Positions 8,851 to 42,033 of a DNA stretch of 64,000 nt are shown here, in pieces. The translations under genes were made by a program, and so were the position numbers. The first letter of the stretch is position 1, and each line of letters begins with the position of its first letter. This DNA comes from Nanobdellota archaeon (lineage in GTDB: Archaea; Nanobdellota; Nanobdellia; Parvarchaeales; Parvarchaeaceae), in assembly GCA_021807085.1 (NCBI GenBank), contig JAKAPM010000002.1, positions 9,125 through 73,124 on the forward strand, read 5' to 3'. The notes beneath the pieces are model-generated. The model saw only the letters and a program-made list of their open reading frames with translations, ran no database searches and was not told the origin of the DNA.

Positions 8851-8956
8851 TACCTGTAACTGTCAATCACCAAATAAATACTTGAGATAACTTTGCGTTG
8901 TCAACCCCTACCGCGAATAGCACTAACTTAAATATAAAAACGACTCAGATATTCTT

Positions 8957-10702
8957 ATGAATACCGGCGAGATAAAAAAGGTCGTTGACAGCTTCGATTC
9001 GCAGAAGACCGGCGCCAAAGAAGTAAACGAGTGGATAAAAGAGCTCAGAGCGAGAGCATCTGGCACGGAAACGCACTACAGGGGAGAGATAGACTTCAGG
9101 TTTGCCAATGAGATGAAACTTCCAGATCCGGGATTCATAGGCAATCCCGACGGCTACTCAGTCACGATGGACATAAGGAAGCGGCACCAGTTCCAAACTG
9201 AATACATGTCAATGAACCAGATGCTGGCTTCTCTTGGGTACTCTAGACTAGCAACCAATGAGAGCATAGACCCGTCGGCTGTCTCAAACCTAATGACTAT
9301 ATTCCTGGACAAGAAGAAGGCCCTCGAAGACAGGGTGATGCAGCTCCTCGGGAACATAAACACCGTGCTCAAATCCGTGATCGCGATAACTTACGAACTC
9401 AAGGAACTAGACAGGAACCTGTCGTTCTACAAGCTCTCAAAAGCTGGTGAGAAGGAGAAAGCAGAGGCGGCAGAGCTGGCGTTAAAGAGAATATTTCTGG
9501 ACAACGTGGACGCAAGGAAAGGCGGAGCCAGCCTATCGTCGCTGTCGAGGTCGTCGACCCAGGCACAGGGCGGAGGACCTGGTTTCATAGATATAGTGGC
9601 GGCGTTCTACCAGGTGAAGAGCCTTAAGGCGATATCGGATCTACAGAGGAACGAACAGTACAAGAACATACTCAAGAACAGGTACATAGAATATGAGGAC
9701 TGGAAGAAAATAAACGGGGAAGACTTGAAGAACAGGAAGAATATGCTCTTACAGTACCTGAAAAGCCAGGTGAGTTCGTTTAACATGTACACCGAATGGG
9801 CAGCCCAGTACATGACGATAATGAACCGCATAAGGATAGAGAGGATAAAGGGGGGAAAAGAACTGGTGAGCTCGAACGCGCCTGCCGACATATTCGAGAC
9901 GGCGATGTTCAAGATAAACATGATCGGGTACAAACAGATGTATCTCAGGGAATACGACATCGAGCACAAGAAGCTTTTCGGGGAGAGAGGCCCTGAGATT
10001 GTGAAAGACGCCGCGCTCAAAACCATAGGCCCAAGGGGTACGCTCATGACCCGGGGACACAAGGAAGACAACAGGTCTTTCATATACAAGCACATCAAAA
10101 AATACGGACCGGTAGTGGTAACGGCAGTGGATACATCGTTCGGCTTCAGGGAAAAACAGGCGTTCCTGCCGGAATTACCGCAGCCTCCTAACGCGCAGTA
10201 CGAAGGGACTTTCTTCCTTACAATCACCCCGCTGTGCTTCACGCTGGACGAGTGGTTCGTATACAAGAAGGCGCTCGAGGCATATTCGAACAAGACGGTG
10301 TTCGCAGGAGTGGACCAGGCGGTATACCATTCGCTCGACATCATAAAAAAGGACCTTGATAAATACATAACGGAGGCAGACGAGGCGGAAAAGGACAAGG
10401 GACCGAAAAAGAAACAGAACGACATGGCACTTAGCGACATATACAGATCCTTCAGGGACGACTTTTTCGGGATATCCAAATCACTATCTCAGCTCGGAGA
10501 ACCTATCAAGAAAGGGGCAGCAGCGCCCTTCAATAAGGAGCTGTACGAGATAGTCATAAACAAAAAGTTCCACAAGACGAACCATAAGGATGCGATAGAG
10601 GCGGGCCTTTTCGTGGCGAACAAGGAAGCCGAAGGCATGTACAACGAATTCAAGAGAAGATCCAAGCTGTTAAACAACCTGTCGCCGTTCACGATATACT
10701 AG
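8957..10702 (+). CDS. hypothetical cytoplasmic protein (581 aa), no recognisable motifs
   Basis: Long ORF with normal composition, no TM segment and no P-loop. Preceded by a TATA-like cttaaatataaaaa at about 8926. Its stop is 4 nt upstream of the mini pilin-like ORF cluster, in the same frame. Confidence 0.6.
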   Translation: MNTGEIKKVVDSFDSQKTGAKEVNEWIKELRARASGTETHYRGEIDFRFANEMKLPDPGFIGNPDGYSVTMDIRKRHQFQTEYMSMNQMLASLGYSRLATNESIDPSAVSNLMTIFLDKKKALEDRVMQLLGNINTVLKSVIAITYELKELDRNLSFYKLSKAGEKEKAEAAELALKRIFLDNVDARKGGASLSSLSRSSTQAQGGGPGFIDIVAAFYQVKSLKAISDLQRNEQYKNILKNRYIEYEDWKKINGEDLKNRKNMLLQYLKSQVSSFNMYTEWAAQYMTIMNRIRIERIKGGKELVSSNAPADIFETAMFKINMIGYKQMYLREYDIEHKKLFGERGPEIVKDAALKTIGPRGTLMTRGHKEDNRSFIYKHIKKYGPVVVTAVDTSFGFREKQAFLPELPQPPNAQYEGTFFLTITPLCFTLDEWFVYKKALEAYSNKTVFAGVDQAVYHSLDIIKKDLDKYITEADEAEKDKGPKKKQNDMALSDIYRSFRDDFFGISKSLSQLGEPIKKGAAAPFNKELYEIVINKKFHKTNHKDAIEAGLFVANKEAEGMYNEFKRRSKLLNNLSPFTIY

Positions 10703-10705
10703 GGT

Positions 10706-10876
10706 ATGGAAAGAGGCCAGATGCCGGTAACTGAGATAATAGCTATAATCCTTGCGATCATAGTCCTGCTGGTTGGGATAGCTATAGCACTCTACTTGTC
10801 GCACGGAGGGAACAGCATCTCGACTGCTATAGTGCAGCTGTTTTCGTTCAGATGGCTGTACGGTGGCGGACTGTGA
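10706..10876 (+). CDS. mini pilin-like protein 1 (56 aa; class III-like N-terminus MERG|QMPVTEIIAIILAIIVLLVG)
   Basis: Short basic N-terminus ending R-G, followed by a hydrophobic helix of about 22 residues. Not in the ORF track because it is under 60 aa. Confidence 0.45.
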   Translation: MERGQMPVTEIIAIILAIIVLLVGIAIALYLSHGGNSISTAIVQLFSFRWLYGGGL

Positions 10877-11043
10877 ACAACAGAGGTGTAATAAGCGCGT
10901 TCTTCACGTATATCATACTCATAATAATAGGGATAGTGCTGATACTGATATTCCTAGAGTTATTCACGCCCTACAAGATATCGTCGGTCTTCGGGAATTT
11001 TATATCCTCGCTGACCAACATAAACCCGGGTAGATATGCTTAA
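10852..11043 (+). CDS. mini pilin-like protein 2 (63 aa; ...NNRG|VISAFFTYIILIIIGIVLILIF)
   Basis: In the ORF track. RG followed by a hydrophobic helix of about 24 residues. Overlaps ORF 1 by 25 nt. Confidence 0.45.
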   Translation: MAVRWRTVNNRGVISAFFTYIILIIIGIVLILIFLELFTPYKISSVFGNFISSLTNINPGRYA

Positions 11044-11182
11044 CAGGGGCGTTTCGGATTTCATGCTCCTTCTGATAGTAACAATCATAGTGCTAATCGT
11101 AATAGTGATATTCTATCTCGTATTATATTCACCTTCGTCGCTAGAGCACATACTGCCCAAGTTTCCGTCCATACCGGTGTAG
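11036..11182 (+). CDS. mini pilin-like protein 3 (48 aa; MLNRG|VSDFMLLLIVTIIVLIVIVIFYLVL)
   Basis: RG plus a hydrophobic helix. Overlaps ORF 2 by 8 nt. Confidence 0.45.
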   Translation: MLNRGVSDFMLLLIVTIIVLIVIVIFYLVLYSPSSLEHILPKFPSIPV

Positions 11183-11185
11183 AAT

Positions 11186-11347
11186 ATGGAAGCTATCTGG
11201 TTCTACATACTCGCTGTCATATTGGGTGTTGTATTGGTGATTACTTATATATTGTTGGTAGGTCCAGCCGTGATATTGAAGGACATAACTGGCGCATTCA
11301 CTGGTTTTGAAAATTCTCTGTTTTCTGCGTTTGGAAAAGCGTACTGA
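11186..11347 (+). CDS. small hydrophobic protein 4 (53 aa; MEAIWFYILAVILGVVLVITYILLVG...)
   Basis: Begins 4 nt after ORF 3. Single TM helix and no RG motif. Confidence 0.4.
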   Translation: MEAIWFYILAVILGVVLVITYILLVGPAVILKDITGAFTGFENSLFSAFGKAY

Positions 11348-11382
11348 GCGGTTTAAAGTTTATATTTCTGTTTCTACATCAG

Positions 11383-11961
11383 ATGGATATGATTACTTAC
11401 AGTGAGTTCGTAAGGATAAGAAGGCAGGAGCAAGAGGATAACAGAACCCTGACGAAACTCAACGACGGTCTCTACGACGAGATGAAGGAATACATCGCCA
11501 TAAACAAGAACTCATTCGATGAGGCCAGGAACATCGACGACCAGAGGAAGATGGATGAGATTGCGATGCAGATAAAGAACGCACTCAACACGCTAGACCA
11601 GATAATAAACATAAGGATAATAAAGATATCTAACATGGCCGTCCTGGGAATAAACAGCGAAGAAGCCAGGGGCAACATGATGTCGAAGGAACTCATACTG
11701 TTCGACAATCTGCTGGACGTTATCAACAAGCACAAATCTGAGCTGCTCGACCATGTCAGGAACGTTGAACCGAAAAAACTTCAGAAGGTGGAGAGCGATC
11801 CTGACTCTGAGAAGACCATAATAAAAGTGATAGCCGATATACCAAAGTTCATATGGAGGAACAACAAGTCCTATGGCCCGTTCGGGTTCCCGAACGTGAT
11901 AGAGATAGATACCGACGTCGCGGACATTCTTATAAAGAGCGGTAAAGCCGTAGGAGTCTAA
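11383..11961 (+). CDS. hypothetical protein (192 aa), start/stop overlap with downstream Hef-like helicase
   Basis: TATA-like gtttaaagtttatat about 20-25 nt upstream. Helical acidic protein. A GINS-like identity is only a weak guess. Confidence 0.5.
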   Translation: MDMITYSEFVRIRRQEQEDNRTLTKLNDGLYDEMKEYIAINKNSFDEARNIDDQRKMDEIAMQIKNALNTLDQIINIRIIKISNMAVLGINSEEARGNMMSKELILFDNLLDVINKHKSELLDHVRNVEPKKLQKVESDPDSEKTIIKVIADIPKFIWRNNKSYGPFGFPNVIEIDTDVADILIKSGKAVGV

Positions 11962-13493
11962 TGTTCATCAAAAAAGACAGAGTGGCGTTCAGGGAATACC
12001 AAAACAACATTTTTGAGAGCGCGAAGGACAAGAACACCCTTGTAGTCCTGCCTACGGGTCTCGGGAAGACGGTGATAAGCGCACTGGTCGTTGATTACAG
12101 GCTAGAGAAGTTCGACGGCACAAAGGCACTGTTTCTCGCTCCGACAAAACCGCTGGTCAACCAGCACAAGAGGACTTTCGACAGCATATCCACTCTCTAT
12201 GGAGAGGTGGTGAGCGGAACGGTGTCTAGGGGGGAGAGAAAAAAGATATATAATGAGGCACAGATAGTCTTTGCCACGCCGCAGACCGTGGAGAACGACG
12301 TAGAGAACGGGATAGTAGACCTCGGCACATTCAGTGTTGTCATAGTCGACGAGGCGCACCATGCTGTGGGGAATTATTCGTACGTAAAGATAGTCTCGGA
12401 ATATATGCGCGTTTCGAAGAACCCGTTGATACTAGGCCTCACTGCCTCGCCGGCGTCGGACAGTGAGAAGATAAGGCAGATATGCGACAACCTCCGCATA
12501 GCCAATGTAGAGATAAGGAGCGACGAGGACGCGGACGTCAGCCCGTACATAAAATCCAAGCTGGTAGAGGAGGTGAGGGTCGAGCTTCCCGAGGATATAA
12601 ATAGGCTTGCGGCCTCGCTCGACGGAATGATAAAGGCTGGCGTGGACGAACTAAGAAGGGCGGGCTTCTACAAGGACATGCCGGTCAGCAGGATAAGCAG
12701 AGTGTCCATACTCATGCTGCAGAAGAGCCTGCAGAAGCAGATGATTTCAGGAAAGAGGAATTTCTACACCATAAGGGGAATAATAATATCGTCCAAGCTC
12801 CTCAAACTGTACCACGCCTACAACCTGCTCTCCACCCAGAGCCTGGAATCGTTCGTAAACTTCGCGATGAAGCTGACGGCCGGCAAATCTAAATCGGACA
12901 AGGAGATAGCTGCGAGCGGAGGGTTCGTATCCCTGCTGGAAGAATCGGAAAAACTGCTGGCATCGGGGCGAGAACACCCCAAATTGGACAAACTGAAGGA
13001 AATACTCGCCGGTGACTTCAAGAAGGGGCAGAAGGCGATAATATTCACGCAGTACAGGGACACGGTCGACACCATCTGCGACGCGATAAGCGGAGTGAAC
13101 GGTGTAAACGCCGTAAAGTTCATAGGACAGGGCAAGGGCGGCTTGTCGCAGAAGGAACAGATAAGGATAGTCAAGGACTTCGAATCCGGAGTGTACAACG
13201 TACTGGTATCAACCAGCGTAAGCGAGGAAGGGATATCGATAAAGGGCGTCGACATAGCAGTCTTCTACGAGACCGTACCCAGCGCGGTTAGGTCTATACA
13301 GAGGCGGGGAAGAGTCGGAAGGTTCAACGCGGGCAGGATATTCATACTGATAACCAAGGATACGAGCGACGAGAGCTATTACTGGGTGTCGAAGAGAAAA
13401 GAATCTAGGATGAAGAAGATAATAAAGAACATAAAGGATAACCCGGAAACGCTCAGGAACGACGGTACGCTCAGGTTCTTCGTGAACCGCTGA
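11961..13493 (+). CDS. hef: Hef/FANCM-like superfamily 2 helicase (helicase domains only, no ERCC4 nuclease domain)
   Basis: 510 aa. YQNNIF...LVVLPTGLGKT (motif I), VVIVDEAHHAVGNYSY (DEAH), C-terminal helicase motifs QRRGRVGR. Ends without a nuclease domain. Confidence 0.75.
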   Translation: MFIKKDRVAFREYQNNIFESAKDKNTLVVLPTGLGKTVISALVVDYRLEKFDGTKALFLAPTKPLVNQHKRTFDSISTLYGEVVSGTVSRGERKKIYNEAQIVFATPQTVENDVENGIVDLGTFSVVIVDEAHHAVGNYSYVKIVSEYMRVSKNPLILGLTASPASDSEKIRQICDNLRIANVEIRSDEDADVSPYIKSKLVEEVRVELPEDINRLAASLDGMIKAGVDELRRAGFYKDMPVSRISRVSILMLQKSLQKQMISGKRNFYTIRGIIISSKLLKLYHAYNLLSTQSLESFVNFAMKLTAGKSKSDKEIAASGGFVSLLEESEKLLASGREHPKLDKLKEILAGDFKKGQKAIIFTQYRDTVDTICDAISGVNGVNAVKFIGQGKGGLSQKEQIRIVKDFESGVYNVLVSTSVSEEGISIKGVDIAVFYETVPSAVRSIQRRGRVGRFNAGRIFILITKDTSDESYYWVSKRKESRMKKIIKNIKDNPETLRNDGTLRFFVNR

Positions 13494-13494
13494 A

Positions 13495-13944
13495 TCAGGA
13501 TTTTATCTGCACTATACTCTCGCAGAATCCTCCGGATTTGTAGGTCTGCCCGCCTATCTCCACGGAGCTGCCTGTCGTGTTACCTATGAAGATGTTGTTA
13601 CCCGGCTGCAGCTGGAAATCCTGCGAGAATATGCTTGAACCTACAAAGTATGCACCGGCGAAAACCGGACCGGTCAGCGGAGGAATCTCGGCGTAAACGC
13701 TGTAATTCAGACCGGGACTGCCTTCCGACACTGTGACCCTGAAATAATCCGTCTTGGTAGGGGTGCTGACGTTGACCGCCGATATGTTGCACTGGGCGGG
13801 ACTACCGGTGAGCGACGGATTAGTTTGGCCTATGGCTAGCAACGAGAAGTGGAACACGGAGCTCGCTACCAGTATGCCTATCACTACGAAGGATATAAGG
13901 AGGACCATTATGATGATATAATCTATCGTAGATGTTCCTGTCAT
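13495..13944 (-). CDS. pilin-like extracellular protein (149 aa), last gene of five-gene operon
   Basis: N-terminus MTG|TSTIDYIIIMVLLISFVVIGILVA (G followed by a hydrophobic helix). Mature part is Ser/Thr/Gly-rich. Confidence 0.6.
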   Translation of the reverse strand: MTGTSTIDYIIIMVLLISFVVIGILVASSVFHFSLLAIGQTNPSLTGSPAQCNISAVNVSTPTKTDYFRVTVSEGSPGLNYSVYAEIPPLTGPVFAGAYFVGSSIFSQDFQLQPGNNIFIGNTTGSSVEIGGQTYKSGGFCESIVQIKS

Positions 13945-13945
13945 A

Positions 13946-15439
13946 TCAGGCCGCCACCGCGCACAAGTACATCTGATTCATGCCGAGGTAAGCAGCGCTG
14001 TCCACGTGCAGGTTCTGCTGGAACCAGCCGACTATCGAGCCTGCACACTGCTCCAGACCGCTTGTCTTGAAAAGAGTGGTACCCACAAGATTCGGGATGT
14101 TGGACAGCACATAATTGTTGCAGAAGGTATTGGTCTTGCATCCTGCACTGCTGGCACCTATGACTATCCCGCTCGCAGCAGCTCCGGCTATGGATCCGAA
14201 GCTCAACGAGGCGCTCGGAAGGCCGCGCGTGAGCAGCGCATAGGTCGTTACTGCCCTGGAACACTCGTACTCTATCCCGGAAGTCGGGTAATTTACGACG
14301 AAACTGGTCTGTACGCATTCGGACGGAAGCGTGACTTTGTCGGGAGGGAACCTCGTCCCGACGAGGCTGTTCAGGTAGACGATGTAGAGCTGTGCCTTCG
14401 ATATGGACTTGTTGCTGTCTATCGGCACCGCGTTGGCACTCCCTGATGTCTTGTTCTTGTAGCTGTAGTTGACGGTGAAGCCGGGCCTGAGGTAGTTGAA
14501 ATAGGATACGTTCACCACGGAAGTCGGCTTAACAGGTTCTGTTATCTGGCAGGTGTTCGGGACCTCGTAGGAATTCAGCACCGAATCGTAGCCGATGGAG
14601 CACACGTAATCCCCGCTCTGGTTCTTTGCGCAGAAGTCTGTGTACGGCGTAGAGCATCCTGTCGTGGCGCCGTCCTGATTGGTGCACGTACCGACGGAAG
14701 TGTTAAAGGAACAGCCCTCCGACGCGGAACACAAGTACTGCGGTAGGTCGTTGTACGCGGTGTTGGGGGCGGTGGAACTGTAAAGGGGCACAACCGTCAG
14801 CGAGTAACCCTGTGTGAAGGAGGTGTAGCCTGGCTGGTCGAAGCAGCTGAAGAAATCGCTGTTGTTGGATATGCATTCACTGGGATTGTTAAAGTTGCAT
14901 GAGAAGCCGTTCGGATTGGATGATGAGAAAGGGTCAGCGCACGCTTGTGCGGCGGTGTGGTTGAGGCAGCTCACTTCTGTCGTGAAGGGTGTGTTCTGTA
15001 GATATGTGGTCAAGTTGCCAAAGGTTATGTTTTGGTTCAGATCCAGGCTTATAATGCTGCATATCCTCGTGGCGCCGGGGGACACCGTAAGTCCCTGCGA
15101 ACCGCCGTACTGGTCCCAGCATTCGGACAGCGCGGTAGCCACTCCGGAGAAGACACTGGGAGTGGACGCCCCGCTGGAGAAAGTCTGGGACGAAGTGGTG
15201 CAGCCGAAATCGGGGGGATTTATGCCATAGGACTGCAAGGTCGAGCTCAGGCAGAAGAAATTCGAGAAACACAAGTCGTTATAGAAGAAATTCGACACCT
15301 GCGAACTCGCGTAGCACGTGGTAGCGTTGGAGAACCCAACGCCCAGGAATAGGAAGGATGCGAATATGACTATTATGAATATCATGAATATCACTGACAG
15401 GATGATGAAAATGAAGTTCTCTCCCGGCGTCTCAGGCAT
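13946..15439 (-). CDS. Cys-rich extracellular protein with pilin-like N-terminal helix (497 aa)
   Basis: MPETPG|ENFIFIILSVIFMIFIIVIFA, then about 470 aa rich in Cys (more than 25), Asn, Ser and Thr with many N-x-S/T sequons. Confidence 0.6.
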   Translation of the reverse strand: MPETPGENFIFIILSVIFMIFIIVIFASFLFLGVGFSNATTCYASSQVSNFFYNDLCFSNFFCLSSTLQSYGINPPDFGCTTSSQTFSSGASTPSVFSGVATALSECWDQYGGSQGLTVSPGATRICSIISLDLNQNITFGNLTTYLQNTPFTTEVSCLNHTAAQACADPFSSSNPNGFSCNFNNPSECISNNSDFFSCFDQPGYTSFTQGYSLTVVPLYSSTAPNTAYNDLPQYLCSASEGCSFNTSVGTCTNQDGATTGCSTPYTDFCAKNQSGDYVCSIGYDSVLNSYEVPNTCQITEPVKPTSVVNVSYFNYLRPGFTVNYSYKNKTSGSANAVPIDSNKSISKAQLYIVYLNSLVGTRFPPDKVTLPSECVQTSFVVNYPTSGIEYECSRAVTTYALLTRGLPSASLSFGSIAGAAASGIVIGASSAGCKTNTFCNNYVLSNIPNLVGTTLFKTSGLEQCAGSIVGWFQQNLHVDSAAYLGMNQMYLCAVAA

Positions 15440-15472
15440 AAACTAATAGAGTCACTGTCCACTATATATCGT

Positions 15473-16366
15473 TTATTTCGAAGTTATGCACACGAACACT
15501 CTGCTCTGTTTGTACACCATGGCGTTCGTGAGATAACCGCACTGCGGGATGTAGTAGGTGCACCCCGTGCTCAGGTTTCTCACCACCTTCGAGGGGTCGC
15601 CGTTGCTTAGGGAGCTGACCGTGCTCCGGGTCTCTGGAACGGTCTGGTTGCCGTAATAGCACTCGGCCGGGTCCAGCACCGGCTGCTGGTAGTTAGACGT
15701 CAGTATGCACTGGTCCTGGAAGGGTATTGTGCAGTCCTGCGGCGGATTGGTGGAGGGATAGCCGAAATACGAAACGAGATAACTGGAATTGGAGATTAAA
15801 TCCGACGGATTTACGTACTGTGCGCTGCCCCCGGTGCCATTGGTTATGAAAACTATCTGCAGCGGGTAGGAATTGTTGTAAGCGTTGTCTAGGGAACGTA
15901 TAAGCTGGCCATAGTCTACGCTGGTGCCGCTGCTGGGTGAGAGGATGCCGTAATAGCATTCGAACACTTGGTTCATGTTGGAGCTGCTTATCACGCTGTT
16001 TCCAGTGCCGCTGGTTGCACCGTGGAACAGGGAGAAGCACGACGACGCGTCCGCGAACAGCCTGCTGCTAACGTCGGACGTGGAGGAGAAGGCTATGTTC
16101 GAGCTCTGGAGGCACGATATCTGGACCTGGGCTGCCTGTTCGGGAGAGACGTAGTACTGCGATAAGCCGAAATAAGACGCTACGTACGTCAGGGGTGATA
16201 CGATAGAGTTTATCAGGTTGTACTGTTCGAACGCCACGAAACAGCTGAACCCGAAATTTATAGTGCTGATATCAGTTATTATCTGGAAGGAGAAAATCGC
16301 CACGATTATTCCGGCGATAACCACCAGGAAAACGGCTATTATCGTCAGTATTATCCCCTCCTCCAT
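15473..16366 (-). CDS. extracellular protein with pilin-like N-terminal helix (297 aa)
   Basis: MEEG|IILTIIAVFLVVIAGIIVAIFSF, then a Cys/Ser/Asn-rich domain. Confidence 0.6.
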   Translation of the reverse strand: MEEGIILTIIAVFLVVIAGIIVAIFSFQIITDISTINFGFSCFVAFEQYNLINSIVSPLTYVASYFGLSQYYVSPEQAAQVQISCLQSSNIAFSSTSDVSSRLFADASSCFSLFHGATSGTGNSVISSSNMNQVFECYYGILSPSSGTSVDYGQLIRSLDNAYNNSYPLQIVFITNGTGGSAQYVNPSDLISNSSYLVSYFGYPSTNPPQDCTIPFQDQCILTSNYQQPVLDPAECYYGNQTVPETRSTVSSLSNGDPSKVVRNLSTGCTYYIPQCGYLTNAMVYKQSRVFVCITSK

Positions 16367-16548
16367 CAGGCGCCTCCGCCGCCAAGAATGTTACCGAAGT
16401 ATGAGAACGGGGATTGCCCGTGCGAACTCACGTAGAACATGAGTGCCAGGACTGTTATGGCGATTACGAACGTTATCACCACTATTATGAGCCACGTTAT
16501 CCTCCACTCGACGCTGCCTTTGTTATTAATCATACCATCACTGGCCAA
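16366..16548 (-). CDS. small pilin-like protein (60 aa; ...NNKG|SVEWRITWLIIVVITFVIAITVLALMF)
   Basis: K-G followed by a hydrophobic helix and a GGGGA tail. Translationally coupled to its neighbours by overlapping stop/start codons. Confidence 0.5.
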   Translation of the reverse strand: MASDGMINNKGSVEWRITWLIIVVITFVIAITVLALMFYVSSHGQSPFSYFGNILGGGGA

Positions 16549-17044
16549 CGCACGGCGGACAGTACGGACTGTCGCCCTTCACGCACGCTGGTGTGCTCAT
16601 GTCGCAGTTCTCTATGACCGTGGCATTGTTGGCCACCACCGTGCTCTGGTCGCAGCTGAACAGGTCCGCTGTGTTGGATGGCGAGACCACCTTGCACGCG
16701 TTTAGGACCGACTGCGGCGGGGCTGATATGCAGTTCTGTACGCTGACGTAGTCCCCCTGGCCGTTCTTGTAATAGAGATAGTAGCATTCGTTGCTCAGGC
16801 ACGTCTGGTAGGCGGATGACTGGTTGTAGCAGGCGTCGGTCCCGTAGCACCTGAAGAGGGGCGTCCCTTCCATCCTGTTAGGATAACCGTATTCAGCGCT
16901 GGTGAACTGGTTCTCCAGTATGTCGTTGTTATTGCACCCCACCGGGAAGACCGACGAGAAATTCTGGTAGAAGGACACGAAGAGCACGATAGACACCGCT
17001 ATGCCGAATCCCACCTCGAACAGCATGAATTGTTCGTCGTCCAT
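16538..17044 (-). CDS. Cys-rich extracellular protein with N-terminal hydrophobic helix (168 aa), first gene of operon
   Basis: MDDEQFMLFEVGFGIAVSIVLFVSF, then a domain with about 14 Cys. Promoter-like ttgatttttattatgaaaaa lies about 20-30 nt upstream on the minus strand (plus coordinates about 17060-17078). Confidence 0.6.
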   Translation of the reverse strand: MDDEQFMLFEVGFGIAVSIVLFVSFYQNFSSVFPVGCNNNDILENQFTSAEYGYPNRMEGTPLFRCYGTDACYNQSSAYQTCLSNECYYLYYKNGQGDYVSVQNCISAPPQSVLNACKVVSPSNTADLFSCDQSTVVANNATVIENCDMSTPACVKGDSPYCPPCVGQ

Positions 17045-17577: not shown

Positions 17578-18009
17578 TCATACCGACACAGAACCCTTGG
17601 CCGCTATCGTGGGCGGTGAGGATATGTTCATCGGGGTGTAATATATGTAGACCAGCCCGGAAAAATGTGATGTGGCGGTATAGGTTATGTTGCATTCGTA
17701 GTAGGCAAGAGTCTGCAAGTACCCGCCCCCGCACCCGGTATAGTTCTGGGAGCCGATTATCAGCGACACTGCGTCGATTTTTACGTTCTCGTTGAGTAGG
17801 TTTTGGACCTTCATGTAGAATATGCTGGACGGGGCGTAGTAACCTATTGCGATCACGTCGAAACCCTGCAGTCCGGAATAGGTTGCGGAAGTCGAGGCCT
17901 GTGAGAAGGTGGGGAAGAACGTAAGTACGAGCGAGACTGCGAGGATTATCGCCACCACCGCCAGCCCGTAGATAATGGCTATCTCCAGCGACATCTGCGC
18001 GCGCATCAT
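17578..18009 (-). CDS. type IV pilin-like protein with class III signal peptide (143 aa)
   Basis: MMRA|QMSLEIAIIYGLAVVAIILAVSLVLTFF: [KR][GA] then Q with a hydrophobic helix. Ser/Thr/Tyr-rich mature domain. The overlapping ORF 17567..18013 in another frame is rejected. Confidence 0.7.
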   Translation of the reverse strand: MMRAQMSLEIAIIYGLAVVAIILAVSLVLTFFPTFSQASTSATYSGLQGFDVIAIGYYAPSSIFYMKVQNLLNENVKIDAVSLIIGSQNYTGCGGGYLQTLAYYECNITYTATSHFSGLVYIYYTPMNISSPPTIAAKGSVSV

Positions 18010-18043: not shown

Positions 18044-18114
18044 AGCCTCCAGAGGGAGTTGAACCCTCGTCTCCTGCTTACGAAGCAGATGCTCTACCGC
18101 TGAGCTATGGAGGC
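18044..18114 (-). tRNA. tRNA-Thr (anticodon CGU)
   Basis: Folded manually: acceptor GCCTCCA/TGGAGGC, D-arm GCTC-AGCGGTA-GAGC, anticodon stem TCTGC/GCAGG with loop TTCGTAA, T-arm GAGGG-TTCAACT-CCCTC. No encoded CCA. Confidence 0.8.
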
Positions 18115-18123
18115 GACTATCTA

Positions 18124-18294
18124 AACCCTACGTTCTTCCGTGTTCTTTTCTTGTATTCGCCATCGCTTATTATATGTTTTCTAGCTTCGAAACTCTTGCC
18201 GCAGAAGAAGCATTTGACCTGTCCGAGCGAAGATGTGCGCCTGAAGTTGCCGCAGTTCGGACACCTGACCATCCTCACCGGCATAGTATCATTC
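18124..18294 (-). CDS. small zinc-ribbon protein (56 aa)
   Basis: MPVRMVRCPNCGNFRRTSSLGQVKCFFCGKSFEARKHIISDGEYKKRTRKNVGFR; C-x2-C...C-x2-C. Not in the ORF track (under 60 aa). Function unknown. Confidence 0.45.
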
Positions 18295-19011
18295 CCCGAC
18301 CAGAGATCCGGCCAGCTCGAAAAATGCCCTGGAAGAGGCTAGTTTCCTGTCCCAAAGAACCACCGGCAGACCCTGTTTCAGGGCGGAGTATAGGGACTTG
18401 TCTTCGGGGACTATCCACGTGTTGCTTATTCCAGTTATTTCGGATGCTTCCCTCTCGCCTACTCTGTCCCTGATTCTCCTGTCGTACCTGTTCATCACCA
18501 GCCCCAGGACGTTCACGCCGCTGCTCCTGAGTTCGTCGTTCAGCTTCCTCGCTTCTATCATCGCGGTTATCTCCGGGACTGAAACTATTATGGCGCTGAT
18601 GCCGCGTATCGCCTTGACGAAGTCGACGTCGTACGACGGCTTTGAGTCTATTATTATGAAATCGTAGTTTCTCTCCACTTTCTGTATCTGGTAGAACAGG
18701 TTTATTATCTTGTACCTCGCGTTGCCGTCGCCCCTCCCCTTGAACACCCTGGACGGGAGGATGTGCAGGTTGTTCACGTCTGTCTTGTATATGGCGTATT
18801 CGACCGGCACGGAGCTGTTGAACACGTCCTCCAGAGAATATTTATACCCGACGAAGCCGAAATATATCGCCACGTGCGGCGTCTCTAGATTCGCGTCTAT
18901 TATCAGAGTCTTCTTTCCCAGCGATGCCAGCGTCGCGGCGATGTTGACCGACGTGGTCGTCTTGCCGACCCCTCCCTTCGGGCTCATGACAGCTATAACT
19001 TTGGCTACCAT
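18289..19011 (-). CDS. ParA/MinD-family P-loop ATPase
   Basis: 240 aa. Deviant Walker A SPKGGVGKTTTSVN, and Walker B IIIDSKP. Confidence 0.8.
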   Translation of the reverse strand: MVAKVIAVMSPKGGVGKTTTSVNIAATLASLGKKTLIIDANLETPHVAIYFGFVGYKYSLEDVFNSSVPVEYAIYKTDVNNLHILPSRVFKGRGDGNARYKIINLFYQIQKVERNYDFIIIDSKPSYDVDFVKAIRGISAIIVSVPEITAMIEARKLNDELRSSGVNVLGLVMNRYDRRIRDRVGEREASEITGISNTWIVPEDKSLYSALKQGLPVVLWDRKLASSRAFFELAGSLVGE

Positions 19012-25412: not shown

Positions 25413-26075
25413 ATGAGGGCGCAGTTTTCCTTCGAATTCGTCGTAGATGTAGCCCTTGCACTGGTCATCATAGGGTTCATAGTGGCCTTCTTTTCCTCCA
25501 TAACCACTAACAATACAGCCGCAGGGGATATGAACGGGATATGCAGTCTAATAGCCGATTCTGTGAACTCGGTCGTGAATTCCGGCGGCCTGTCCGCAAC
25601 GGTTTACCTTCCGCTGCAGAATATGACCGCAGCGGCTAATTACACGATAAACGTCTCAAACGGGGTCATAATAGTATACGCTTACTTCAACAAGAAGATA
25701 CCCGCGAAGTTCCTGTCCGGGACAAACGTCGTATCCTGCGGAGCCAACACCCGCGCCACGGCCAACGAATCGTTCGAACCTGCCAACCTGGTGCTGTACG
25801 CCAACTACAGCGACGTGGCTATAGGGTACGTGTACGCCAACTACAGCGCCAACTATTACCCATACTTCGTCTACGTCGGCGGATTCTACGGGAAGGCTAC
25901 TCTATACCTCCAGTATTCGAACGGCACCCTGCTGAAGCTTATGGACGCCACTTCCCCCTATATATACAACGCCAACGTAGGCCTTCCGATACTGACTACG
26001 GGCGAGTACACGCTGCTTGTGGAGGCGGACAACAACACAGCTCTGAGTGCCAGTCAGAGTTTCACGCTCGCTTAA
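25413..26075 (+). CDS. type IV pilin-like protein with class III signal peptide (220 aa)
   Basis: MRA|QFSFEFVVDVALALVIIGFIVAFF. Mature domain is Asn/Tyr/Ala-rich. Confidence 0.7.
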   Translation: MRAQFSFEFVVDVALALVIIGFIVAFFSSITTNNTAAGDMNGICSLIADSVNSVVNSGGLSATVYLPLQNMTAAANYTINVSNGVIIVYAYFNKKIPAKFLSGTNVVSCGANTRATANESFEPANLVLYANYSDVAIGYVYANYSANYYPYFVYVGGFYGKATLYLQYSNGTLLKLMDATSPYIYNANVGLPILTTGEYTLLVEADNNTALSASQSFTLA

Positions 26076-26126: not shown

Positions 26127-26603
26127 ATGGTAAAAAGAGCACAGTCGGCTTTGGAGTACATGATGACGTATGGTTGGGCCATACTAATCATAGTAATCGT
26201 AGCTGCTGTCCTGTACTCGATGGGCATATTCAACCCTTCGAGCAGCGTAACCACGTCGTCGAGCGGCTTCAGCCCGTTCACCGTCAGCGCGGCGCTTTGC
26301 AACAGCTCAGGTACATGGGTATCTTTCGTTGTAGGCGGTTATCCTAACGGTGCACAGAGCGCGACCAGCGTGACCCTGACCCTCACCGCGACAAGCGGCG
26401 CGAGCGGCAGCGGCACTGCAACTGCAATCGGATCGCCGACATACACGTCTGGCACAAGCTTCAAAATGACAGCTGCTGGCGTAACATGCGCGACAGCCGG
26501 AGGAAAGTTCTCCGAGAGTGGTTCGATAGGTTACTCGGTAACCACGACACTAGGTGCGCAGTCTTACACAACGACGGGTACGGTAGCAGGATCAGCTAGT
26601 TAA
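26127..26603 (+). CDS. type IV pilin (class III signal peptide), Ser/Thr/Gly-rich, candidate major pilin (158 aa)
   Basis: MVKRA|QSALEYMMTYGWAILIIVIVAAVLYSMGIF. TATA-like aagtatacttaaatag about 27 nt upstream (leaderless). Followed by an oligo-T terminator at 26610..26640. Confidence 0.8.
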   Translation: MVKRAQSALEYMMTYGWAILIIVIVAAVLYSMGIFNPSSSVTTSSSGFSPFTVSAALCNSSGTWVSFVVGGYPNGAQSATSVTLTLTATSGASGSGTATAIGSPTYTSGTSFKMTAAGVTCATAGGKFSESGSIGYSVTTTLGAQSYTTTGTVAGSAS

Positions 26604-29833: not shown

Positions 29834-30086
29834 ACCCTAATAAGATTAAATTCTGTATAAATAGATTAACGAAAGAGAGATATTGTATATCATTCATGCG
29901 GCTTTCTTCAGTATTTTCGACACATAATCTATGTCAGTAAAAACTAAAACCTACCGATTTATTTATTGCAAGTTGCCCACATCATCCAGGCTGTAGAATA
30001 TCTTTCCATTGGGCTTTATTCTCTTGAACTCTTCCAGTTCTTTGCCCCGACCGGGTGCCGACATTTCTGTCATATTAGAATGATAT

Positions 30087-31070
30087 TTAATGTTTGTTGT
30101 TATATTTAAATCCATGCAATAGAATTCTTACTACCATAATTTCAGATGTGTCATATATTGTTTCTATTAAGAGTTCTCCCGATTCTTTATTTTTTTCTAC
30201 CCATTCTTTTATGGTTTTTACGTTTGTGGGATTTATGCCATGGATGAAAAAGCCTGGAAATTCATAGGTATAAGAACTAATAATTTTTTGCTTTACCTCA
30301 TCTTCTAAATCATCTATTGACATGTTGCTATTAACAAAAATTGCTAACACAGCATTTTTTATAACTAATTCATATATTGAATCAGCTTTCTTGCGTTCTG
30401 TATAAGAATAGAGTGGATAAATAAATTTTTCAAAATAATCTGCATTACATAAGTTAGCTATATTATTACCACGCATACCAAATCTTTGACTTATTTGTTG
30501 TTTTAGATGCACAATATTTTTTCCCTTTTTACTTTGAGATCTTAAAAATAAAGAGTTTGCTAAGGCATCCAGATCATATTCGGGAATTTTATCTTTGAAA
30601 TACTCTAATAATGCATCATCCGCTCTTTTATTTTGTGAGGAGTTATAACTAGCAAGTTCATCAAATATCTCTAAATCCTCGGCTCTAAAGATTGCTTTAT
30701 CACGTTCGGTTTTACGTTCGATTAATATCTTAGATAACTCTTCTTTTTCTGAATCTGTTAATTTGTCCGCATTTATAATCAGTTGTCTTTTACCTTCTAA
30801 ATAAAGCACTTTTTCACTGTTTTCATTAGATGTTGTTACCCCTACTTGCTCTACAATTTCTTCTTTTTGCTCCGTTTTTTGTGAGGGGGTATTATAGAAG
30901 ATATTCACTGTACCAACATCATGTATGTTTATTGATTTTTTGCCAGAACTAACATTGTTATTGCTCCCACTAATAGTTTTAACATCTACACTATCATTAT
31001 TTGTTTCGTGTTCGCCACCAAGTATCTTTTTTACAAATTCTAATGCAAGAATAAGATAGTGGTGTACCAT
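30087..31070 (-). CDS. hypothetical protein of integrated element (327 aa)
   Basis: AT-rich ORF (Asn/Lys/Ile-rich) with no motif recognised. Confidence 0.5.
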   Translation of the reverse strand: MVHHYLILALEFVKKILGGEHETNNDSVDVKTISGSNNNVSSGKKSINIHDVGTVNIFYNTPSQKTEQKEEIVEQVGVTTSNENSEKVLYLEGKRQLIINADKLTDSEKEELSKILIERKTERDKAIFRAEDLEIFDELASYNSSQNKRADDALLEYFKDKIPEYDLDALANSLFLRSQSKKGKNIVHLKQQISQRFGMRGNNIANLCNADYFEKFIYPLYSYTERKKADSIYELVIKNAVLAIFVNSNMSIDDLEDEVKQKIISSYTYEFPGFFIHGINPTNVKTIKEWVEKNKESGELLIETIYDTSEIMVVRILLHGFKYNNKH

Positions 31071-31076
31071 ACCACA

Positions 31077-31436
31077 TCAATTTCTTTTGAACAGTCTACG
31101 TATAGAATCTACATTGTCTTCTATAAAAATATCAGAGCCATTTTTTATACCACCAAAGTTTTTCTTCAATATATTATTACCTTCAAAGGTAATGACTTTT
31201 TCTTTATTCTTTTTATTAATTATATACCCTTCTTTATCTGTTTCATAGCCAAAGGTGTCCAAAACAAAGTCAATAGCCGAACTATCAAATGTTATGTCTA
31301 GGTTTTCATCAACATTCTTATAAGTGTTAAGTTCTGTTTGCATATTATTATTATTACTATTATGTATAAATATTCGATTAATGACACCTTCTGCCTTATA
31401 AAGCTTACTAACTATCGAGTTAGAGAGGATCTTCAT
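31077..31436 (-). CDS. hypothetical protein of integrated element (119 aa)
   Basis: AT-rich ORF. Stop overlaps the integrase start region. Confidence 0.45.
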   Translation of the reverse strand: MKILSNSIVSKLYKAEGVINRIFIHNSNNNNMQTELNTYKNVDENLDITFDSSAIDFVLDTFGYETDKEGYIINKKNKEKVITFEGNNILKKNFGGIKNGSDIFIEDNVDSIRRLFKRN

Positions 31437-32389
31437 AAAGCCCCCTCTCTAAGCTTCTTATTCAGCTCCAAAACCGCCGGCAGGATGTCACGCCCAGATA
31501 AATGCACGTAAATCTTGGGCATCCCGCTTCCTTGAATCCACCCTAGGTACACGCACATCTGTGATTCTGTCAGATATTGCGCCAAAAACGTAGCCCTCGA
31601 ATGCCTGAAAAGATATGAATAAACCCTCTTGTCGAAATTCAATTTAAGGGCAAGGTTCTTTATTAGAGAGTTGAGCCAATATACGCTCACAGGGAACAGC
31701 TTGTCCGCCGGCTTGATCGGATTTGCTTCTAGGTACTGCTCCAGATAATAATCGCTTCTTGTCGTCAATATCACCGGAATCTGCCTCGAACCCGTCTTAG
31801 TGTTCTCCGGCACATAGACGAAAAGCCCGTTCTCGTTCTTTTGCACGTCCTGCCTATTTAATGACAATAATTCGTGCGGACGGCAGCCCGTATCGTAAAG
31901 AAGACTTAATACGGCTTTATCTAAAGGTTTTTTAGCGGCGTCTATAATCCGTTTTATCTCGTCCAAAGACAGCGTTTCGTGTGGCAGCATACGTTTCTCT
32001 TTTGTTTGGAATCGGTAACGGGACAGTTTTAAGTCCGGATCCAGCCACAGGGCGAACTTTCTGAACCTGCTTAGGTAATGTTTTTTTGTCTCGAAGACGA
32101 AGTCGCTGGAGCGTATATACTCGAAAAACCTGTCCACGTCCTCGGCTGTGACGAGGCTTATGTCCGGTTTTACCGCTTTTTGGAACCGGTTAAGGACGAC
32201 GACATACCACTCCTTAGTCCTTTCATTGAAGCCCTCTCTGTCCAATTCCTTCAAAAACCGGCTGATTATCTCGTTTTCCACGTCAAAGCACTCCGGTTCT
32301 CGTGCCCATCCCCGACAATTCACCATTAAGGCCAGACGCAGCCGGCTCTGAGCCGGCGCTGCAATCGTCGCTGTCTTCGTGTTCCCCAT
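31433..32389 (-). CDS. int: tyrosine recombinase / phage-type integrase (XerC/D-like)
   Basis: 318 aa. The C-terminal catalytic region has GCRPHELLSL, HSRATFLAQ (H-x-x-R) and the YLGW...YVHL tyrosine region. Lies about 450 nt from the tRNA-Glu 3' end. Confidence 0.8.
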   Translation of the reverse strand: MGNTKTATIAAPAQSRLRLALMVNCRGWAREPECFDVENEIISRFLKELDREGFNERTKEWYVVVLNRFQKAVKPDISLVTAEDVDRFFEYIRSSDFVFETKKHYLSRFRKFALWLDPDLKLSRYRFQTKEKRMLPHETLSLDEIKRIIDAAKKPLDKAVLSLLYDTGCRPHELLSLNRQDVQKNENGLFVYVPENTKTGSRQIPVILTTRSDYYLEQYLEANPIKPADKLFPVSVYWLNSLIKNLALKLNFDKRVYSYLFRHSRATFLAQYLTESQMCVYLGWIQGSGMPKIYVHLSGRDILPAVLELNKKLREGAL

Positions 32390-32499
32390 AATTTAAGCTT
32401 TCTCCGGCTGCTCTCGTATCTCTTCCACGGTCACCCTGACGACCTTGCCGGCTAGAGAGTTTGAAAGGATTAAAATTAAACGAGGGATTATAATAATTA

Positions 32500-36824: not shown

Positions 36825-37922
36825 TTGAGGTATGATATGCATCAGACAGAAAACGTGAATCCGATAGAGGCGAGCCTAAACAAGCTTTTCTCGACAATAG
36901 ACGCACTGTCGTCGAAGATAGACGAGCTTAACGAGCGCGTAGATTTCATGGGTTCGTTCATAGGTCTAGAGTCTGGCGAGGGGGAAAACGCCGAGAAAGT
37001 GGAACCGCCTGGACAGCTGGCCGGACTCACACTCGACAACCTCAACAAGATACTCCCTCCAAAGGACGCTAACGCCGTTAGGGCGTATTTCCTGAGAGTC
37101 CTGAGCCTTTTCAGGCGCTACGTAAAAGCGATAGTCATGTTCGGAAGTTCAAAGACAAAGAGCGGCGTGACAAACACGTCCGACATAGACGTTGCGTTCA
37201 TAGTGGACGACACCGACATACAGAGGTTCACCCTCGAACAGCTAAAGGACAGGCTATTCACGAAGATGGCGGAGATAGCGAGGGATTTTTCGGAGAAAAT
37301 CCACGCGCAGGCTTACCCTCTCTCCGAGTTCTGGGGTTCGATAATAAAACCAAACCCAGTCATACTTACGCTACTGAGGGACGGCATGGCAGTGTACGAC
37401 ACTGGTTTTTTCATACCGATACAGCTGCTCTACAGGACCGGCAACATAGTACCTACGATAGAGACGATAAACAGCAACATAGAGAATTCGGAGGGGCTGA
37501 TAATGCTGGCGGAGAACGTGCTTACGACCAAGCTGTCGCTGGACCTTTACAACGCAGTCGTCGCGTCCGGACAGGCGCTTCTTATGGAGTACGGTTACCT
37601 GCCGCCTGTGCCAAAGGAGATCCCGAAGGAGCTCATGGCTGTAGCCGTGGAGAAGGAGAGGATACTCGCGAAGGAGGACGTCGACAGGATAGAAGACGTG
37701 ATAAAATGGTTCAAGAAGATAGACCATGGGGAGACGAAGAGCGTAAGCGGCAGGGAGTTCGACGAGAAACTTGCTGAGACGAAGGAAAGCGTCGACAAGA
37801 TAATAAGCGTGATAGACGGGCTAAGGGAGAAGAGCGGCCTGCCGAAACCCGTCATAGAAAAAGATTTATTAAAGAAAACTGGCTCTGATGTAGATAACAA
37901 ATACATGCAGAAGACGGAATGA
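36825..37922 (+). CDS. nucleotidyltransferase-domain protein (Pol-beta superfamily)
   Basis: 365 aa. MFGSSKTKSGVTNTSDIDVAFIVDD = GS...DxD NTase motif. N-terminal helical region. Confidence 0.6.
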   Translation: MRYDMHQTENVNPIEASLNKLFSTIDALSSKIDELNERVDFMGSFIGLESGEGENAEKVEPPGQLAGLTLDNLNKILPPKDANAVRAYFLRVLSLFRRYVKAIVMFGSSKTKSGVTNTSDIDVAFIVDDTDIQRFTLEQLKDRLFTKMAEIARDFSEKIHAQAYPLSEFWGSIIKPNPVILTLLRDGMAVYDTGFFIPIQLLYRTGNIVPTIETINSNIENSEGLIMLAENVLTTKLSLDLYNAVVASGQALLMEYGYLPPVPKEIPKELMAVAVEKERILAKEDVDRIEDVIKWFKKIDHGETKSVSGREFDEKLAETKESVDKIISVIDGLREKSGLPKPVIEKDLLKKTGSDVDNKYMQKTE

Positions 37923-38179
37923 ATATGACAAGCATAAAGATAGTCTCGTACAGAAGGGGCAGAAAGACCCAGAACACCAGGCAGGCCATAGCCAGGATTT
38001 CGGAAGTAAACACGAAGGAAGCGGCCAGCAAATTCGTCGGCAAGAGGGTCGAGCTGCCGTTCCCGAAGAACCCGATAAAAGGAGTCATAACGGGGACCCA
38101 CGGCGGCAAGGGTAGAGTTATCATAAGGTTCAGGAGGGGAATCCCCGGCCAGGCAATCACAAAGGAAGTCAAGTTCTGA
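37919..38179 (+). CDS. rpl35ae: 50S ribosomal protein L35Ae
   Basis: 86 aa. IVSYRRGRKTQNTRQAIARI...EAASKFVGKRVELPFPKNPIKGVITGTHGGKGRVIIRFRRGIPGQA matches the L35Ae consensus. Start overlaps the upstream stop (ATGA). Confidence 0.85.
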   Translation: MNMTSIKIVSYRRGRKTQNTRQAIARISEVNTKEAASKFVGKRVELPFPKNPIKGVITGTHGGKGRVIIRFRRGIPGQAITKEVKF

Positions 38180-41299: not shown

Positions 41300-41979
41300 T
41301 CAGTTGAAAAAACAGGCGGAGTAGAACACCTGGTAGGTGCGGGGAAACACCCTTATAATGTAAAGCGGCAGGTCGGTGCTAACAGGTACAGAACCTGAGT
41401 ATTGGCCGTTCGAAGAGGTCTCCGTCTGGCTCGCGATGTAGGCCCCAGACTCGGAATAGACGGTTATGTTGAACGTCACATCAGGGAGGAGGTCGCCGTT
41501 CTCGTCGAAAAACTCCAGCGAATAGTCTATGCTACCGGAAGAATAGGAGAAACTCGAATCCATGGAAGATAGGGGAAAATTCAGGCCCATCTCAGTTATC
41601 GTGCCGTTGAACGTGAGATAGGCGTGGTACAGGCCGGGTATGAACGGCATCAGCCCAGACATGTTGACGTTCGCCTGGTCTATGTACGACGACGCTCTGC
41701 TGCCTAATTCGACGATGTCGCCGCAGAAAAAGGAGGACTGCACTGAGAGCAGCGGGAAGGTGACGGCTATCACCGTCTTGGAGTCGGCCCCCTGGGCCGA
41801 CACGTAGTTCGCCGCTTGCACTATCTGGGCGGCTGCGGTGGATATCTGGTTGGAGGAGGACGAACTTGAGTAAGAAGTGTAGAAAAAGAGCGCGTACACC
41901 AGCGCGGCGGCTATCACTGCCATGGCTATCCCGAGGATTATCACGTATTCGGTCGTGTATTGGGCTCTGCGGCGGTCCA
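41300..41979 (-). CDS. pilin-like protein with class III signal peptide (226 aa)
   Basis: Probable start MDRRRA|QYTTEYVIILGIAMAVIAAALVYALFF (ATG at 41979; the tracker ORF starts 56 codons earlier). Ser-rich mature domain. Confidence 0.65.
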
Positions 41980-42033
41980 TAAATGATAGACGACCTTCAC
42001 GTATATATAAAATACGGGGAGAGATAGATATTA

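Follow-up and report, generated by a model that had tools for sequence, protein, structure and literature searches.

Candidate type IV pilin-like mini-genes without a globular domain beside a DPANN-wide coiled-coil protein gene in Parvarchaeota

What do four very small genes encode that lie packed behind the gene of a 581-residue protein in an archaeon of the Parvarchaeales? The question is raised by a stretch of 64,000 nucleotides from Nanobdellota archaeon (GenBank assembly GCA_021807085.1, contig JAKAPM010000002.1, positions 9,125 to 73,124 of the forward strand), which we call the window and whose own numbering is used here. The genes of the window are archaeal, thermosome, GalT and thioredoxin reductase among them, and their nearest relatives are found in metagenome-assembled genomes (MAGs) of Candidatus Parvarchaeota, the ARMAN-4/5 group. 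The four mini-genes, s1 to s4, are protein-coding and under strong purifying selection. We suggest as the fairly probable explanation, judging from sequence, that the products of these genes and of a fifth mini-gene nearby (mini5) are subunits of the type IV pilin-like kind that lack a globular domain, each made up of a class III signal, an alpha1 helix and a short specific tail. The features at the centre of the question are as follows, with a slash marking the predicted cleavage site.

8928-8939, forward strand: candidate TATA/BRE-like element (BRE, transcription factor B recognition element) TTAAATATAAAA, about 24 nt upstream of the ATG of the 581-residue gene
8957-10702, forward strand: cytoplasmic coiled-coil and beta-domain protein of 581 residues, from a DPANN-wide uncharacterised family, adjoining s1-s4 upstream
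10706-10876, forward strand: s1, mini pilin-like protein of 56 residues, MERG/QMPVTEIIAIILAIIVLLVG...SFRWLYGGGL
10873-11043, forward strand: s2, 56 residues, GTG start, (M)NNRG/VISAFFTYIILIIIG...FTPYK
11036-11182, forward strand: s3, mini pilin-like protein of 48 residues, MLNRG/VSDFMLLLIVTIIVLIVIVIFYL..SP
11186-11347, forward strand: s4, 53 residues, leaderless in the window, MEAIWFYILAVILG...

The original prediction, made on the window alone, had placed four mini open reading frames (ORFs) downstream of the 581-residue ORF, and they are indeed there, with some corrections to the spacing. From the stop codon of the 581-residue gene to s1 the distance is 3 nt, GGT at 10703-10705, which keeps the frame; it is not the 4 nt first given. 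Overlaps of 8-25 nt had been claimed among the mini-genes. This is right for s2 and s3, which share 8 nt, but s1 and s2 overlap by 4 nt (GTGA, s1 stop and s2 start) and not 25, and a gap of 3 nt lies between s3 and s4. An ORF for s2 can be opened at an ATG (10852-11043, 63 residues), but gene callers and homology favour the GTG at 10873, and at its position the s2 orthologues begin M-x-x-K-G.

The four mini-peptides were searched for in all six frames of 46 genome loci that surround homologues of the 581-residue protein. Synteny with the 581-residue gene, proposed earlier as a check, was found in about 30 independent Parvarchaeota loci, more than chance would give. In these loci, which include ARMAN-4 (L027) and ARMAN-5 (L032), s1 to s4 follow in unchanged order directly 3' of the 581-residue homologue. 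The median pairwise ratio of nonsynonymous to synonymous substitution rates (dN/dS), taken only from pairs with unsaturated dS, is 0.023 for s1, 0.078 for s2, 0.077 for s3 and 0.046 for s4; synonymous sites are saturated between the window and locus L009. Across genomes that are 46-68% divergent the protein motifs are invariant, namely MP[IV]TE...SFxWL[FY]G in s1, ...FTPYK in s2, ...FYL..SP in s3, and Glu at +3 of the predicted mature end followed by ...GP in s4, and distant genomes again show the start/stop overlaps of 4 nt and 8 nt. A profile search with s1 returned 44 clusters, all from Parvarchaeota or Rehaiarchaeum. The genes are small, as the original prediction stressed, but they are not so easily missed in annotation as it supposed, since gene callers predict all four as well as mini5, and s1 of ARMAN-5 is annotated as the hypothetical protein BJBARM5_0302.

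The N-termini of all four families fit an archaeal class III (prepilin) signal. Motifs were counted in 32 loci for s1-s4, 25 for mini5, 21 for the neighbouring pilin pil143 and 28 for the pilin-like p149. The residue at -1 is Gly or Ala in 32/32 sequences of each of s1, s2 and s3 and in 25/25 of mini5, and Lys or Arg stands at -2 in all 32 sequences of s1, 25 of the 32 of s2, 31 of the 32 of s3 and all 25 of mini5. This Gly/Ala is placed directly before the hydrophobic helix, whose onset lies at +1 to +7, so the hydrophobic stretch of about 20 residues comes right after the predicted cleavage site, at the extreme N-terminus of the mini-proteins. At +1, s1 has Gln (24/32) or Glu (8/32), and s2-s4 have Val, Ile, Ser or Ala. 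The predicted junctions, KG/Q, KA/Q, KG/V and RG/V, match in their residues the experimentally characterised archaeal pilin processing sites, which are KG/QV, KG/QI and RA/QI in EppA substrates and KG/IS, RA/LS and RA/VS in PibD substrates (PMC4371748, Table 1). Upstream of the junction, neither the length nor the sequence of the leader is fixed, and in Rehaiarchaeum it is just MKG or MRG.

The s4 family occurs with and without such a leader. The form M..N[KR][KR]G/[VI]TEA.. is present in about 10 of the 32 loci; in the rest there is none, which holds for most Parvarchaeum genomes. In the window and its relatives s4 begins MEA[IV]WFY, and in the alignment its Met falls at +2 of the predicted mature end. 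The Glu at +3 is invariant (30/30). Because the leader can be lost entirely while the remainder stays constrained, it appears to act like a removable leader and not like a functional cytoplasmic anchor. The first reading of the window, an R-G followed by a hydrophobic helix in s1, s2 and s3 and a bare helix in s4, is correct for this genome. Its proposal of a class III-type signal with a single core helix is strengthened by the conserved [K/R]-[G/A] of the s1-s3 orthologues, by the leader of s4 orthologues elsewhere and by the pilin-like genes that surround the locus.

The signal can also be recovered by rule. We scanned the six frames of the window, start by start, with a FlaFind-like rule, a leader ending in [KR][GA] and then an uncharged hydrophobic core, and used 20 shuffles of the window as control. 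Six ORFs were found, s1, s3, mini5 and three canonical pilins (17578-18009, 26127-26603 and 41300-41980), with matches in 0/20 shuffles. The strict rule misses s2 solely through one Glu in its helix.

Downstream of s4 the window continues with two replication and repair genes and then with a wider pilin-like cluster.

11352-11367, forward strand: candidate TATA-like element TTTAAAGTTTATATTT before the Gins51-like gene
11383-11961, forward strand: Gins51-like protein (Pfam Gins51_C), 3' of s4 in most lineages
11961-13493, forward strand: Hef-like helicase (Pfam ResIII, DEAD, Helicase_C), after the Gins51-like gene
13495-13944, reverse strand: p149, pilin-like, orthologues M..NK[VI]KG/[AT]SAVEY
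13946-15439, reverse strand: p497, Cys/Asn-rich with an N-terminal helix, MAET[PA]G/E... (MAETPG/E in the window)
15473-16366, reverse strand: p297, Cys-rich with an N-terminal helix, MEEG/ILLTI...
16366-16533, reverse strand: mini5, 55 residues, the fifth mini pilin-like protein, MINNKG/SVEWRITWLIIVV...SPFSYFGNILGGGGA (MINNKG/SVEWR...SPFSYFGN)
16538-17044, reverse strand: p168, first gene of the minus-strand cluster, with an N-terminal hydrophobic helix and no [KR][GA] junction
17578-18009, reverse strand: pil143, canonical Epd/EppA-type pilin, M[KR][GA]/QxxLE, found by the rule scan
18044-18114, reverse strand: tRNA-Thr(CGT), adjoining pil143
18289-19011, reverse strand: MinD/ParA/FleN-type P-loop ATPase (Pfam AAA_31, ParA, CbiA)

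The genes p168-mini5-p297-p497-p149 form a conserved minus-strand operon (13495-17044) that is convergent with the Hef gene and lies 2-6 kb from s1-s4. Its five products have N-terminal helices and as a group are rich in Cys and Asn, with short leaders that end in Gly. We consider the operon probably the real functional partner of s1-s4. In p149, Gly is at -1 and Glu or Asp at +5 in 27/28 sequences, which is the classical G/xxxxE signature. Among the sequences that have a residue at the junction, it is Gly in 27/28 for p497 and Gly or Ala in 25/25 for p297, where -2 is Glu, Gln or Ser; neither protein has a Pfam match. The family of mini5 extends to Rehaiarchaeum and Acidifodinimicrobium. The order of pil143, tRNA-Thr(CGT) and the MinD/ParA/FleN-type ATPase is kept in most Parvarchaeum loci. 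An ATPase of the FleN/MinD type together with many pilins is typical of the Epd-like 'system 1' loci of type IV pili (T4P) (PMC4858521). System 1 occurs in DPANN archaea, and the Epd major pilin is without a globular domain (bioRxiv 10.64898/2026.04.22.720090; PMC4858521).

Gene order in relatives indicates which of these neighbours are the general ones. The standard Parvarchaeum order has an MNT-like gene on the minus strand, then the 581-residue gene, s1-s4, Gins51 and Hef on the plus strand, and then p149, p497, p297, mini5 and p168 on the minus strand; the 581-residue gene and s1-s4 are still neighbours in about 31 of the 32 Parvarchaeum-type loci. In the Parvarchaeum genome of L030 the s1-s4-Gins-Hef block is inverted, giving the collinear series p168-mini5-p297-p497-p149-s1-s2-s3-s4-Gins-Hef, with Hef convergent on the 581-residue gene. 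The same series is present in Rehaiarchaeum (L055), reached through a distant s1 match, with no 581-residue gene nearby; the homologue there (P0098) is on another contig, beside an MNT-like gene and L35Ae. In L026 and L040 the MNT-like gene, the 581-residue gene and s1-s4 are together, Gins-Hef is gone and further pilins lie downstream. Acidifodinimicrobium-type loci have the 581-residue gene convergent with Hef, no s1-s4 in view, and mini5-p297-p497-p149 about 7 kb off. A rough neighbour-joining tree of the 581-residue proteins puts Rehaiarchaeum outside the rest and L030 in a poorly resolved basal region. From these positions the collinear pilin series is plausibly ancestral, with a secondary re-inversion as a possible alternative. 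The mini-genes s1-s4 move as a block, and their most general associates are pilin-like genes. Their attachment to the 3' end of the 581-residue gene is specific to the Parvarchaeum clade and stable within it.

Between s4 and Gins51 the window has the interval 11347-11383, and Rehaiarchaeum has a 4-nt overlap (L055 8639-8642). The staying of pilin-like genes with the replication and repair genes Gins-Hef may reflect genome compaction or a real link.

Within the Parvarchaeum clade, s1-s4 and the 581-residue gene probably form one transcript. On reading the window sequence, no TATA-like element was seen before s1. Since there is one before the 581-residue gene and none before s1, the mini-genes of the window would use the promoter of the 581-residue gene. 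A sigma-70 and terminator scan is uninformative for archaeal DNA.

We propose the following course of events. In the window, the promoter of the 581-residue gene would give rise to a single transcript with tight coupling, from which s1-s4 are translated. Each mini-protein would be made with a class III signal peptide of 3-6 residues ending in [K/R]-[G/A] and would insert into the membrane with its N-terminus inside and its C-terminus outside. A prepilin peptidase encoded elsewhere would cut after the Gly/Ala at the cytoplasmic face, and s4 of the window lineage would need no trimming. The product would be a subunit of 43-52 residues, essentially the alpha1 core helix with a short conserved tail. 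Together with p149, p297, p497 and pil143, these mini-subunits may build a type IV filament or pseudopilus at the cell surface of the archaeon, which depends on a host; they would serve as core, minor or priming subunits that are most likely non-redundant. This is because each of s1-s4 has an invariant C-terminal motif of its own and is under strong purifying selection, which suggests parts of a hetero-oligomeric assembly and not copies of one major pilin.

How much of the association with the 581-residue protein is functional is a separate matter. Though the original prediction called this protein an orphan, its family is large. A word-based search gave 44 close relatives, and the genome scan gave homologues in the 46 loci, including MAGs labelled Woesearchaeota, Pacearchaeota and Nanoarchaeota. 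An exhaustive profile search gave 506 clusters (50% identity) at E<=1e-3 and 337 at E<=1e-10, mostly from other DPANN lineages and without mini-genes nearby. The prediction was right that it has no known domain: there is no match in Pfam, NCBIfam or the PDB sequence search, with the single sequence or with profiles, no fold match, and no domain fusion in a Pfam search of the distant, longer family members. The AlphaFold2 (AF2) model, with a predicted local distance difference test score (pLDDT) of 72, has long helical hairpins at 111-191 and 233-291, a beta sheet at 317-429 and C-terminal helices. Compared by description with the DPANN-specific dark-matter families of Makarova et al. (PMC6393860, Table 1), the family is DPANN-wide, largely helical, in housekeeping contexts and regularly beside a Pol-beta/MNT-like gene, and it may correspond to one of them. 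The functional module of 581-residue protein and mini-genes that had been proposed fares differently at different depths. In Rehaiarchaeum and L030, s1-s4 are apart from the 581-residue gene, and most of its family is without mini-genes, but in the Parvarchaeum clade they are together, even in L026 and L040. Since they stay together through at least one further rearrangement in these two loci, a lineage-specific functional link is possible. The 581-residue protein may have a direct role with s1-s4.

In the loci L005 and L045-L054, from MAGs labelled Woesearchaeota, Pacearchaeota or Nanoarchaeota, distant homologues of about 460-550 residues stand in a recurring cluster, which is a DPANN-wide gene set. 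The partners there are an acidic/disordered protein of about 160-200 residues, a protein of about 620-660 residues with a weak AP_endonuc_2 match, a Pol-beta/MNT-like protein of about 280 residues and a small upstream protein with the N-terminus ...LDL..L.K.GLL.... The neighbours of the distant homologues include no mini-ORFs. In the window, the Pol-beta/MNT-like gene (365 residues) and L35Ae are at 36825-38179 on the forward strand. This MNT-like/L35Ae pair is divergent from and right upstream of the 581-residue gene in nearly all other Parvarchaeales and in Rehaiarchaeum, and is displaced by about 28 kb in the window lineage and L009.

Several results weigh against the pilin-like interpretation. 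None of the four mini-families has its acidic residue at +5: s1 has it at +6, s3 at +2/+3 and s4 at +3, and s2 has none. A Glu at +5 is, however, not a defining feature in Archaea (PMC4371748). Pfam and NCBIfam searches of all small ORFs gave noise only, with no pilin or class III signal model matched; this says little, since Pfam also leaves unrecognised the pilin N-termini of the same window, including the canonical MVKRA/QSALEYMMTYGWAILII. All-against-all hhalign comparison of the mini families with pilin N-termini gave some probabilities of 92-94%, but reversed-sequence controls reached 91%, and we therefore discarded it as evidence of paralogy. The AF2 model of p149, an N-terminal helix with an immunoglobulin/fibronectin type III (Ig/FN3)-like beta domain, is of low confidence and shallow because the single-sequence homologue search gave just 2 proteins. 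A basic residue before the transmembrane (TM) helix is predicted by the positive-inside rule for any single-pass protein with its N-terminus inside. Finally, neither the 64 kb of the window nor the flanks of about 20 kb at the 46 loci showed a gene for a prepilin peptidase, a PilB/FlaI-type ATPase or a TadC/FlaJ platform, and regular expressions for GxGD-type multi-TM peptidases and GxxGxGKT secretion ATPases found none in all fetched loci. Pilin genes are often unlinked from the assembly machinery (PMC4371748), and because canonical pilins such as MVKRA/QSALEYMMTYGWAILII are encoded in the window, the peptidase and machinery are expected elsewhere in the genome. For T4P genes in ARMAN-4/5, the literature gave only general statements, in Chen et al. 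2018 and in the Parvarchaeales paper.

Other explanations must be set against the same evidence. In the main rival, the mini-proteins would be uncleaved single-pass microproteins with the N-terminus inside that act in a membrane complex, as its anchors or as small subunits, and possibly recruit the 581-residue coiled-coil protein. This has a real though minor chance of being right. The 3-nt gap with no visible promoter before s1, the adjacency in nearly all Parvarchaeum-type loci and also in L026 and L040 where Gins-Hef was lost, the lack of T4P machinery nearby and the basic residues expected of any such protein are all in keeping with it. Even the link to the 581-residue protein is not absurd, as an intracellular coiled-coil protein is an accessory of one haloarchaeal T4P system (PMC4858521). 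But the positive-inside rule leaves unexplained the invariant Gly/Ala at the helix junction of five families, and equally the loss of the whole leader in s4. In Rehaiarchaeum and L030, moreover, s1-s4 are detached from the 581-residue gene and joined to the pilin-like cluster, and the ranges of the two families differ: about 500 clusters, mostly where no s1-s4 is nearby, for the 581-residue protein, and only Parvarchaeota and Rehaiarchaeum for s1.

Being small and hydrophobic, encoded in tandem and equipped with short N-terminal leaders, the mini-proteins also recall secreted or membrane-active peptides of the bacteriocin, holin or toxin-like kind, unrelated to filaments. We think this very improbable, because the context is conserved and of a housekeeping type rather than a variable island, purifying selection on all four genes is very strong, whereas toxins evolve fast, the neighbourhood has no immunity, transporter or lysis genes, and the leader is of the K/R-G class III type and not of the double-glycine or Sec type. 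That the mini-ORFs are non-coding, chance products of an AT-rich spacer rich in hydrophobic codons, could be argued from their very short length, with three under the 60-residue cutoff, and from the missing domain matches. We reject it with near certainty, because dN/dS is 0.02-0.08, the protein motifs are invariant over such divergent genomes and the coupled start/stop overlaps are conserved; the motif rule, too, matches nothing in shuffles. Conjugative pilins of the VirB2/CedA1 type have two hydrophobic helices, and this candidate was rejected since the mini-proteins have one.

If the mini-proteins are pilin-like, one of their closest counterparts in design is EpdE (MMP1685, arCOG06620), the major pilin of the EppA-dependent Epd pilus of Methanococcus maripaludis in system 1, which likewise has a class III signal and no C-terminal globular domain (PMC4371748). 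The KG/Q processing site of EpdE resembles those of s1 and pil143. Like the locus described here, system 1 loci have many minor pilins and a FleN/MinD ATPase and occur in DPANN (PMC4371748; PMC4858521; bioRxiv 10.64898/2026.04.22.720090). There are also differences. At +1, s2-s4 have Val or Ile and not Gln, the Glu is not at +5, and the locus has no genes for EppA, an assembly ATPase or a platform. The strict EppA-substrate signature, Gln at +1 and Glu at +5, is absent from the mini-genes, with only s1 coming close, whereas the neighbouring pil143 has both residues in 21/21 sequences each. Unlike Epd, there are four or five distinct mini-subunits here, each a conserved single-copy orthologue. 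The likeness to EpdE proposed here is one of architecture.

The original prediction had compared the mini-proteins with bacterial Flp/Tad pilins (PF04964 Flp_Fap) rather than with classical archaeal ones. In architecture this is apt: Flp/Tad pilins also have a short leader cut after Gly and a mature length of about 45-60 residues with little beyond the alpha1 helix. However, the host is archaeal and no Tad genes are present; the mini-proteins have no Flp_Fap match in Pfam at E<=1, and none of the four families has G/xxxxEY or a Glu-Tyr pair at +5/+6. Besides, pilins without a globular domain were already known in Archaea, in Epd. A preprint that cites Denise et al. 2019 (PMC6668835) regards the archaeal Epd system as the presumed ancestor of Tad (bioRxiv 10.64898/2026.04.22.720090). 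Minor pilins and priming complexes (EpdA-D, PilIJK-type) offer another comparison, in that several distinct, non-redundant pilin-like proteins are co-encoded, as here. Such minor pilins are each required, at low copy number, for starting or capping the filament (PMC4371748; PMC4858521). Known minor pilins normally have globular domains, whereas 5/9 of the cluster members here are without one. Archaea were already known to have pilins that lack a globular domain, and multi-pilin clusters as well. What is unusual here is that there are five different subunits of the alpha1-only kind and that one variant is naturally leaderless.

Parvarchaeota, the relatives of ARMAN-4/5, are uncultured and host-dependent and have been seen attached to Thermoplasmatales via filamentous connections. 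The conserved set of five alpha1-only and several Cys-rich pilin-like proteins is a concrete candidate for this surface apparatus that can be targeted by proteomics or cryo-electron microscopy (cryo-EM). The locus would widen the range of globular-domain-less archaeal pilins, the Epd/Tad theme, and the s4 family is a natural experiment in which a class III leader is present in some versions of one subunit and missing from others. The 581-residue protein marks a large DPANN-wide family without recognisable fold that is worth attention by itself. A bolder proposal, which we regard as improbable, is that p168, mini5, p297, p497, p149 and s1-s4 make up a type IV-like filament specific to Parvarchaeales, with five alpha1-only core subunits and a mostly signal-free s4, that has been wired in the Parvarchaeum clade to the promoter of a 581-residue protein aiding its assembly or regulation. 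Such a filament could be an organelle for host contact or uptake in these obligate symbionts, and if so, the persistent linkage of its genes to Gins51-Hef might hint at DNA uptake.

Further genes with class III signals are scattered over the window.

25413-26075, forward strand: class III signal protein, MRA/QFSFEF, 220 residues
26127-26603, forward strand: canonical pilin, MVKRA/QSALEYMMTYGWAILII, 158 residues, found by the rule scan
41300-41980, reverse strand: canonical pilin, MDRRRA/QYTTEY, 226 residues, found by the rule scan
45833-49198, reverse strand: protein of 1121 residues with a QSALEYMMTYGWAILII helix and NHL/beta-propeller repeats

The last of these is likely a pilus-borne adhesin. 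In L026 (12788-16753, reverse strand) and L040 (13567-17596, reverse strand), a roadblock/LC7-like protein and two KaiC/FlaH-like ATPases, judged by eye from their N-termini, are encoded with another two proteins that have class III signals, such as ...SSKG/QGLPINTIILIAIG. The window also has a low-GC island at about 30000-32400 (GC 0.35 against about 0.51), with a tyrosine recombinase (Phage_integrase, 31433-32389, reverse strand) and two ORFs without family match, which is probably a small integrated element.

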